12,182 nucleotides of DNA, taken from the IMG/VR virus record IMGVR_UViG_2526164690_000021; one strand, given 5' to 3'. A program made the translations under genes and the position numbers. Below are positions 2,559-2,935 of this stretch, one piece after another. This DNA comes from a virus (lineage: Duplodnaviria; Heunggongvirae; Uroviricota; Caudoviricetes). Position 1 is the first letter of the stretch; each line of letters begins with the position of its first letter. The notes below the pieces were generated by a model that saw nothing but the letters and a program-made list of their open reading frames with translations, had not been told where the DNA came from and made no database searches.

Positions 2559-2750
2559 TTAAAGTCCTGCCGGTATTTCGTTATTATTAGTGTGAGTAGT
2601 TTTATCTACCGGATAACAGTTACCGGGAATTTTTTGTTCTGCTGCTGCAGCCATGCATTCTTTCATTGAACCGTATAAGCCAGTCACCAGCTCAAGAGAT
2701 TCGCCGGAAACAAGATAAACTGTCAGAACGAGTGCAAATGTTGTATTCAT
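2559..2750 (-). CDS. Small protein (63 aa) with hydrophobic signal/TM-like N-terminus (MNTTFALVLTVYLVSG...), two Cys in mature part
   Basis: ATG 2750-2748 with AAGGA about 8 nt upstream; ATGA start/stop overlap with the upstream gene (translational coupling); immediately upstream of the large exonuclease gene. Confidence 0.5.
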   Translation of the reverse strand: MNTTFALVLTVYLVSGESLELVTGLYGSMKECMAAAAEQKIPGNCYPVDKTTHTNNNEIPAGL

Positions 2751-2935
2751 TGTTTATATCCTTTTTGCAGCAGGTCCAGACGAGCCAGCATTGAAGGAAT
2801 GCATACTTCATTTAACAGGTCCTGCTCGAGTTTTCTCTGCTTAATGGCGTCTTCAATAAATGTTTTGTCTCCAGTGATAACGCCAATTTCGAAACGAAGT
2901 TCAGACGTGCTGGCATTACATGATAACTTTTCCAT
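2747..2935 (-). CDS. Hypothetical small protein (62 aa, MEKLSCNASTSELRFEIGVITGDK...)
   Basis: ATG 2935-2933 with GAGGA 7 nt upstream; the track ORF 2747..3043 uses an upstream TTG with no SD. Stop overlaps the next gene's ATG. Confidence 0.45.
   Translation of the reverse strand: MEKLSCNASTSELRFEIGVITGDKTFIEDAIKQRKLEQDLLNEVCIPSMLARLDLLQKGYKQ

Follow-up and report, generated by a model that had tools for sequence, protein, structure and literature searches.

Two small overlapping open reading frames (ORFs) lie upstream of an exonuclease gene at positions 2559-2935 of a 12,182-nucleotide stretch of DNA (hereafter the window) from a Caudoviricetes record (IMG/VR IMGVR_UViG_2526164690_000021), and we asked what they encode and what their products would do to the host cell. 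A first-pass annotation had described a 62-aa and a 63-aa ORF overlapping by ATGA, without stating their strand, had placed them where lambdoid phages carry kil-type host-modulating genes, and had read the second as a small membrane or exported peptide with a possible host-toxic or exclusion role. We found both ORFs on the minus strand, at 2935..2747 and 2750..2559, and the homology search that had been proposed as a check assigned each of them to a named family (PF05358 and PF07358, respectively). We conclude with high confidence that the interval comprises dicB and ydfD, the two small genes that close the dicF-dicB-ydfD segment, with predicted roles of the K-12 type, in a Qin/CP-933P-type lambdoid leftward early operon on an E. 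coli chromosome. Both genes are already named and studied, dicB since the 1980s and ydfD since 2016, which the annotation had not recognized, and as a pair they are familiar from the lambda-like prophages that most E. coli strains carry, so that the finding, though real, is an ordinary one. The analysis attaches names and published mechanisms to both ORFs and, through a predicted soluble fold for YdfD, corrects the membrane or exported reading of the second.

Identity of the two genes and their operon

The first ORF (2747..2935, minus strand) starts with an ATG at 2935 and ends with a TGA at 2749..2747, as read from the ORF list and the raw sequence, and encodes the 62-aa cell-division inhibition protein DicB, as established by profile matches, alignment to K-12 and RefSeq annotation. 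The protein matches Pfam PF05358 over its full length (residues 1-62 of 62, E 7e-39, 131.8 bits against a cut-off of 27) and NCBIfam NF049927 with 123.7 bits (curated cut-off 100), and RefSeq labels identical DNA dicB (WP_000413705.1). The dicB ATG is internal to a longer in-frame ORF of 98 aa that has a TTG start (3043..2747, minus strand). The DicB profile begins at this internal Met, which is preceded by a Shine-Dalgarno sequence, GAGGA (2943..2947, minus strand, read from the sequence), 7 nt before the ATG; GAGG is kept at this position in 77 of 79 loci, and the remaining two come without upstream sequence. K-12 DicB likewise starts at an internal ATG according to Cam et al. 1988, as cited in PMC8835842. 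A search of PDB sequences with DicB returned a chance match alone (E 0.85).

Alignment with DicB of the K-12 Qin prophage (b1575) is gap-free and full-length, with 62 aa in each protein, 55% identity and every invariant family position kept in the window allele. The 45% of residues that differ fall chiefly at 2-14 (the N-terminus), 20-25 and 52-61. The genetic setting is also shared: in both prophages dicB comes after dicF, overlaps ydfD and starts within an in-frame upstream ORF, and the upstream leader is nearly identical except for a short variable block. DicB of the window has two cysteines, C6 and C45, both of which are unconserved among alleles.

The second ORF (2559..2750, minus strand) starts with an ATG at 2750 and ends with a TAA at 2561..2559, and its 63-aa product was identified by profile matches, alignment to K-12 and RefSeq annotation as a DUF1482/YebW-family small protein homologous to YdfD. 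Residues 5-61 align with positions 2-57 of the 57 in the Pfam PF07358 (DUF1482) profile (E 2.8e-19, 69.2 bits against a cut-off of 25), PHROG 1092 is matched from residue 1 to 63 of 63 (E 3.5e-34), NCBIfam holds no matching model for the protein, and RefSeq calls it a DUF1482 family protein (WP_001098307.1). K-12 Qin YdfD (b1576, 'lysis protein', PF07358 DUF1482 = YebW family) also has 63 aa and aligns without gaps at 63% identity. The two proteins share the N-terminus MN..F.LVLTV.L, the core SMKEC...EQKIPGNCYPVDK with both cysteines, the C-terminus EIPAGL and the ATGA overlap with dicB; they differ at residues 18-28 and 51-57, and the window protein is the less hydrophobic at the N-terminus (1.51 against 2.00 over 19 residues). 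Both cysteines and the EQKIPGNCYPVDK core are thus present in window YdfD, and Cys32 and Cys45 are invariant in an alignment of 38 sequences and kept in 92 of 95 homologues.

In a scan of species-representative genomes, relatives of YdfD were found in Escherichia and Shigella only, plus one contig binned to a Veillonella MAG, which is probably mis-binned. Several homologues (P0037, P0058, P0071, P0083, P0085 and others) had been called with an N-terminal extension of 18-22 residues, MHCFNAGPFTSDAKRILA-MNTA..., indicating that the frame upstream of the usual Met is open at those loci.

At the junction, the plus-strand tetranucleotide tcat at 2747-2750 reads as ATGA on the minus strand, and the stop TGA of dicB therefore overlaps the start ATG of ydfD (2747..2750, minus strand, read from the sequence). 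A Shine-Dalgarno sequence for ydfD, AAGGA, was read within the 3′ end of dicB (2759..2763, minus strand), 8 nt before the ATG, and AAGGA or GGAG precedes the ydfD ATG in every allele class, even where the C-terminus of DicB is wholly different. The K-12 genes are reported as partly overlapping as well (PMC8835842), and the arrangement suggests that translation of ydfD may be coupled to that of dicB. Two antisense ORFs on the plus strand, at 2666..2794 and 2799..3047, were considered and rejected as frame shadows of the conserved minus-strand genes.

We then placed the pair in its operon. The dicF sRNA gene with its terminator hairpin lies at 3121..3172 on the minus strand (Rfam RF00039, 77 bits against a gathering score of 48, E 5.5e-16, full model 1-52), and with dicF directly upstream the interval can be recognized as the classic dicF-dicB-ydfD segment of a leftward operon of the Qin/CP-933P type. 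The order from dicF to dicB to ydfD matches that of K-12, where Qin carries ydfA, ydfB, ydfC, dicF, dicB, ydfD (annotated 'lysis protein') and ydfE, and the run of dicF, dicB, ydfD and an exonuclease-type gene is common to the window and Qin. Chromosomal prophages of many E. coli strains, O103:H2 12009 among them, match positions 2400-3300 with 100% identity, and RefSeq annotates the identical prophage DNA as 'DUF1482 family protein', 'dicB' and 'exonuclease'.

The position given by the first-pass annotation, upstream of the exonuclease and in the place of kil in lambdoid phages, is correct: the pair belongs to the leftward early operon, and the exonuclease CDS starts at 2465 on the minus strand, 93 nt past the ydfD stop, and is cut off by the left edge of the window, which contains the 5′ 2465 nt of the gene (1..2465; RefSeq WP_000034468.1 'exonuclease'; Pfam PF16473, E 3.7e-62). 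Its product has 823 aa in the full record, with a C-terminal Rv2179c-like 3′-5′ exoribonuclease at residues 641-813 as the sole Pfam domain and no Pfam family match in the first ~640 residues. The 93-nt spacer contains a weak terminator-like site, a short GC hairpin with a T-rich tract (2508..2521, minus strand, consensus scan), and the spacer as a whole is no more stably folded than its shuffled versions (z = -0.03). The longest transcript observed in K-12 covers ydfABC-dicF-dicB-ydfD and ends after ydfD (PMC10448788).

The promoter-proximal genes of the leftward operon (3881..4567, minus strand, RefSeq annotation) are a ydfA-like DUF1391 gene (4567..4412; Pfam PF07151, E 1.7e-28), ydfB (4410..4282) and a hypothetical gene of 129 aa (4270..3881). 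A candidate pL-type promoter (TTGACA, 17-nt spacer, TAGATT; 4749..4777, minus strand) with 10 of 12 matches in a consensus scan directly follows the toxin-antitoxin genes and a terminator-like hairpin (4824..4809), a position that fits PL933P of CP-933P (PMC8630535). In K-12, DicA represses the operon, the antirepressor Rem lifts this repression, and under standard conditions the operon is silent (PMC10448788); its processing and repression are described in PMC10448788 and PMC9438474.

The immunity region of the window is of another type than that of Qin, with a toxin-antitoxin pair adjoining the repressor. An HTH repressor gene (5750..5349, minus strand) is followed by a RelB-type antitoxin gene (5321..5130, minus strand) and a RelE/ParE-type toxin gene (5130..4843, minus strand), which are faced by divergent YdaS- and YdaT-like genes (5858-6539, plus strand). 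By its layout this corresponds to the paaR2-paaA2-parE2 / ydaS-ydaT switch of CP-933P (PMC8630535), whose repressor is noted to have dicB or kil downstream. Two further features were observed elsewhere in the window. A 61-aa ORF (3509-3694, plus strand; RefSeq 'hypothetical') lies between dicF and the 129-aa gene of the leftward operon but on the opposite strand, and encodes CPAC...NCPEH, a possible zinc-ribbon motif, with no Pfam match; K-12 Qin has just a shorter untranslated gap at this position. Other E. coli genomes match the window as far as 11501 only, and within the remaining 11502-12182 Rfam identified the IS10 RNA-OUT antisense RNA at 11547-11616 (minus strand, 98.8 bits), which together indicate that the right end is an IS10-type insertion absent at this site in the closest complete genomes.

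The N-terminus of YdfD

We asked if YdfD is a membrane or exported peptide, as its hydrophobic start had suggested. The features on which that reading was based are real, since Kyte-Doolittle hydropathy reaches 2.35 over the 11 residues from position 4 and the protein has two cysteines, C32 and C45. On this account YdfD would be anchored in the membrane or exported by Sec, its site of action would be the membrane or the periplasm, with septal wall synthesis or incoming phage as possible targets, and the cysteine pair would form a periplasmic disulfide. The uncharged N-terminal run, however, is limited by a conserved Glu and has 16 residues in 91 of the 95 family members, too short for a membrane-spanning helix. 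Over 19 residues the customary Kyte-Doolittle cut-off for membrane segments is 1.6, and both the maximum for window YdfD (1.51) and the family median (1.46) fall below it; 25 of the 95 homologues do exceed it, K-12 YdfD (2.00) among them. After the hydrophobic run the residues V-S-G followed by E resemble a signal-peptidase site, as read from the sequence, but not one of the 95 homologues has a Lys or Arg within its first six residues, so the n-region of a signal peptide is absent.

Structure prediction with AlphaFold2 points to a soluble domain instead. The best model has a mean pLDDT of 81 with strands at 3-12, 18-26 and 43-49 and a helix at 29-39, and residues 1-40 are modeled at pLDDT 83-91, including strand 3-12 (pLDDT 83-90), which pairs with 18-26, so that the hydrophobic start is predicted with confidence as a beta-strand instead of a helix. 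The input was a shallow alignment of 38 sequences, all at least 70% identical to the query, and the other four of the five models had mean pLDDT values of 51-68. A PDB sequence search with YdfD returned nothing, and a Foldseek search of the model against the PDB gave no meaningful fold relative (best E 1.1).

The published work on K-12 YdfD bears on both sides of the question. Lysis by the K-12 protein depends on division, which a periplasmic septal target would explain equally (PMC8835842), and the near invariance of the two cysteines could be taken in favor of a disulfide. On the other hand, K-12 YdfD was purified as a soluble fusion and bound the cytoplasmic enzyme IspG in vitro and by in-vivo FRET, and its Cys mutants retained IspG binding (PMC8835842). 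Neither a basic n-region with a hydrophobic core, as in a Sec signal peptide, nor an uncharged helix of at least ~19 residues, as in a single-pass anchor, was found by hydropathy, charge or AlphaFold2. Based on these results, we consider it quite improbable that YdfD acts at the membrane or beyond it, and we favor the prediction that YdfD is a small beta-beta-alpha-beta domain in which the hydrophobic start would be the buried first strand of a three-stranded sheet.

Conservation, allelic mosaic and the leader RNA

The annotation had made its reading depend on conservation in related prophages, and such conservation is extensive. Of 5426 complete E. coli genomes, 4741 contain DNA similar to the pair, at a median of 2 and up to 10 places per genome, and a scan of viral contigs yielded 80 loci with YdfD at 76-100% identity. 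Across 81 related loci, which are the 80 viral-contig loci plus K-12, both ORFs and the ATGA junction are intact in 79 and the dicB-ydfD junction is disrupted in 2, although the set comprises 19 distinct DicB and 21 distinct YdfD proteins. The window alleles of DicB and YdfD retain every invariant family position. Values of dN/dS against the window allele (Nei-Gojobori, comparisons with measurable dS only) were 0.13-0.54 for dicB and 0.15-0.65 for ydfD and below 1 in every comparison, indicating purifying selection on both genes. The E-values, the spread across genomes, the retention of ATGA and the dN/dS ratios confirm that the ORFs are maintained far beyond chance, and the pair is among the most widespread small-gene modules of E. 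coli prophages.

These data also weigh on whether the pair could be decaying cargo of a cryptic prophage, with ORFs that persist by chance or by hitch-hiking and make no functional proteins. Many carriers of dicB-ydfD are indeed defective prophages, the K-12 operon is silent under standard conditions (PMC10448788), and there are the two loci with a disrupted junction. Against this stand the intact ORFs and overlap in the other 79 loci, the dN/dS range of 0.13-0.65, the conserved ribosome-binding sites of both genes and the occurrence of the module in deposited phage records as well, and we regard decay as scarcely credible. The dicF-dicB-ydfD-exonuclease module is found at ~84% identity in the records of Tritos, HannyBb, mEp460_ev081, PhiR42_1 and several vB_Eco phages. 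According to a paper from 2016, neither DicB nor DicF had matches in phage databases (PMC5069750).

Divergence is spread unevenly along the segment. In ten allele classes compared with the window allele, identity was 53-75% for dicB coding DNA (97% in one near-identical allele), 76-94% for ydfD coding DNA, 84-90% for the dicF-dicB leader where that leader type is present and 88-99% for the ydfD-exonuclease spacer. The same holds for the comparison with K-12, in which the leader and the 3′ spacer are much more alike than the coding cassette. Between cassettes dS is 0.4-1.0, the DicB proteins form 4 clusters at 80% identity with a lowest pairwise identity of 40%, and one dicB allele can stand behind differing upstream regions, for example at loci L060 and L067. 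Among the alleles aligned over 2466-3172 (L002 and L031-L067), dicB coding DNA was the least conserved element.

One account of this pattern is that dicB, and to a lesser degree ydfD, is a rapidly diversifying allelic cassette between better-conserved non-coding flanks. If selection rather than mosaicism were responsible, DicB alleles might differ in partner or exclusion specificity, the up to ten copies per genome could protect against different phages, and strict ATGA coupling would keep the lysis protein from being made without its brake. We think this unlikely, and we read the mosaic as ordinary exchange of lambdoid modules, with junctions at gene borders, plus constraint on a processing site.

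Such a site is suggested by the structured spacer between dicF and dicB (2951..3111, minus strand). The 185-nt sequence from DicF to the dicB start has a minimum free energy of -78.6 kcal/mol (z = -6.4), which none of 200 shuffles equaled, and it contains a long-range RNA duplex of 21 uninterrupted base pairs whose 5′ arm is 3111..3091 and whose 3′ arm is 2971..2951. Both arms are conserved, the sequence enclosed by them is hypervariable from allele to allele, and a gap of 3 nt separates the 3′ arm from the dicB Shine-Dalgarno sequence. In a consensus fold of 20 distinct leaders all 21 pairs were kept, with three variable positions changing to G-U wobbles only. The covariation test on these 20 leaders gave no compensatory pairs, only one-sided wobble changes, so the case for the structure is made by thermodynamic stability and sequence conservation and not by covariation. 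RNase III generates a 72-nt DicF that is 19 nt longer than the 53-nt form, according to Faubladier 1990 as cited in PMC9438474, and the end of this 72-nt form would fall in the middle of the 5′ arm, so the duplex is most likely the known RNase III site and nothing new. If the duplex is, as is probable, the reported RNase III processing site, cleavage there would also trim the dicB leader.

Proposed functions and comparison with known systems

The mechanism that we propose for the window genes follows the K-12 operon. [quoted passage not shown] K-12 DicB binds MinC and is responsible for its ZipA-mediated delivery to midcell, where FtsZ rings are dismantled, and through a MinC-dependent block of ManYZ it confers ~100-fold resistance to lambda and other ManYZ-dependent phages (PMC6832061). 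By homology, at 55% identity to the K-12 protein, window DicB would likewise bind MinC, ZipA would bring MinC to midcell and FtsZ rings would be taken apart, producing filaments, and the same MinC-dependent activity would disable the ManYZ inner-membrane channel and so block DNA entry of lambda-like phages. With just 55% identity to the protein that was studied, and with DicB alleles diverging by up to 60%, window DicB could have a different partner specificity.

The ydfD start codon in the ATGA overlap would be translated from its own ribosome-binding site inside dicB. Overexpression of K-12 YdfD leads to lysis that depends on ongoing division and that is prevented by DicB, by SulA, by ispG overexpression or by the product of IspG, and YdfD has been proposed as an inhibitor of IspG (PMC8835842); this mechanism is reported in that one paper, which contains no enzyme kinetics. 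Window YdfD, at 63% identity to the K-12 protein, would thus be expected to bind IspG and, as a small soluble protein, to lyse dividing cells, with IspG inhibition starving them of the isoprenoid lipid carrier, and co-expressed DicB would prevent this lysis. The host-toxic role envisaged for the second ORF accordingly fits, since K-12 YdfD lyses cells on overexpression (PMC8835842), but the exclusion role does not belong to it, because exclusion has been published for DicB (PMC6832061). PADLOC anti-phage defence models matched neither DicB nor YdfD at E-values up to 0.1.

The suggestion of kil-type host modulation finds its counterpart in the first ORF, as DicB would, on the strength of the K-12 protein, be an inhibitor of the FtsZ ring like Kil of phage lambda. 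Each is a small protein that kills the host, and each gene lies in the leftward early operon, upstream of the recombination and exonuclease genes. Lambda Kil blocks FtsZ-ring assembly, as K-12 DicB does. Kil is not known to use MinC, whereas DicB acts via MinC and ZipA. The Pfam and PHROG results for the two window proteins included no Kil family, and no sequence relationship was detected. The positional equivalence of kil and dicB has been described for CP-933P (PMC8630535), and at the homologous position phage Evi has an annotated 'Kil protein' instead.

For YdfD, the nearest functional comparison is with single-gene lysis proteins such as E of phiX174, A2 of Qbeta and LysM of phage M, with which K-12 YdfD shares a reported block in the supply of wall precursors and no degradation of the wall (PMC8835842). 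Unlike these proteins, YdfD is encoded by an early-operon gene of a dsDNA lambdoid prophage in which holin-endolysin genes are normally present, and the target proposed for it, IspG, is a cytoplasmic enzyme that acts upstream of lipid-carrier synthesis.
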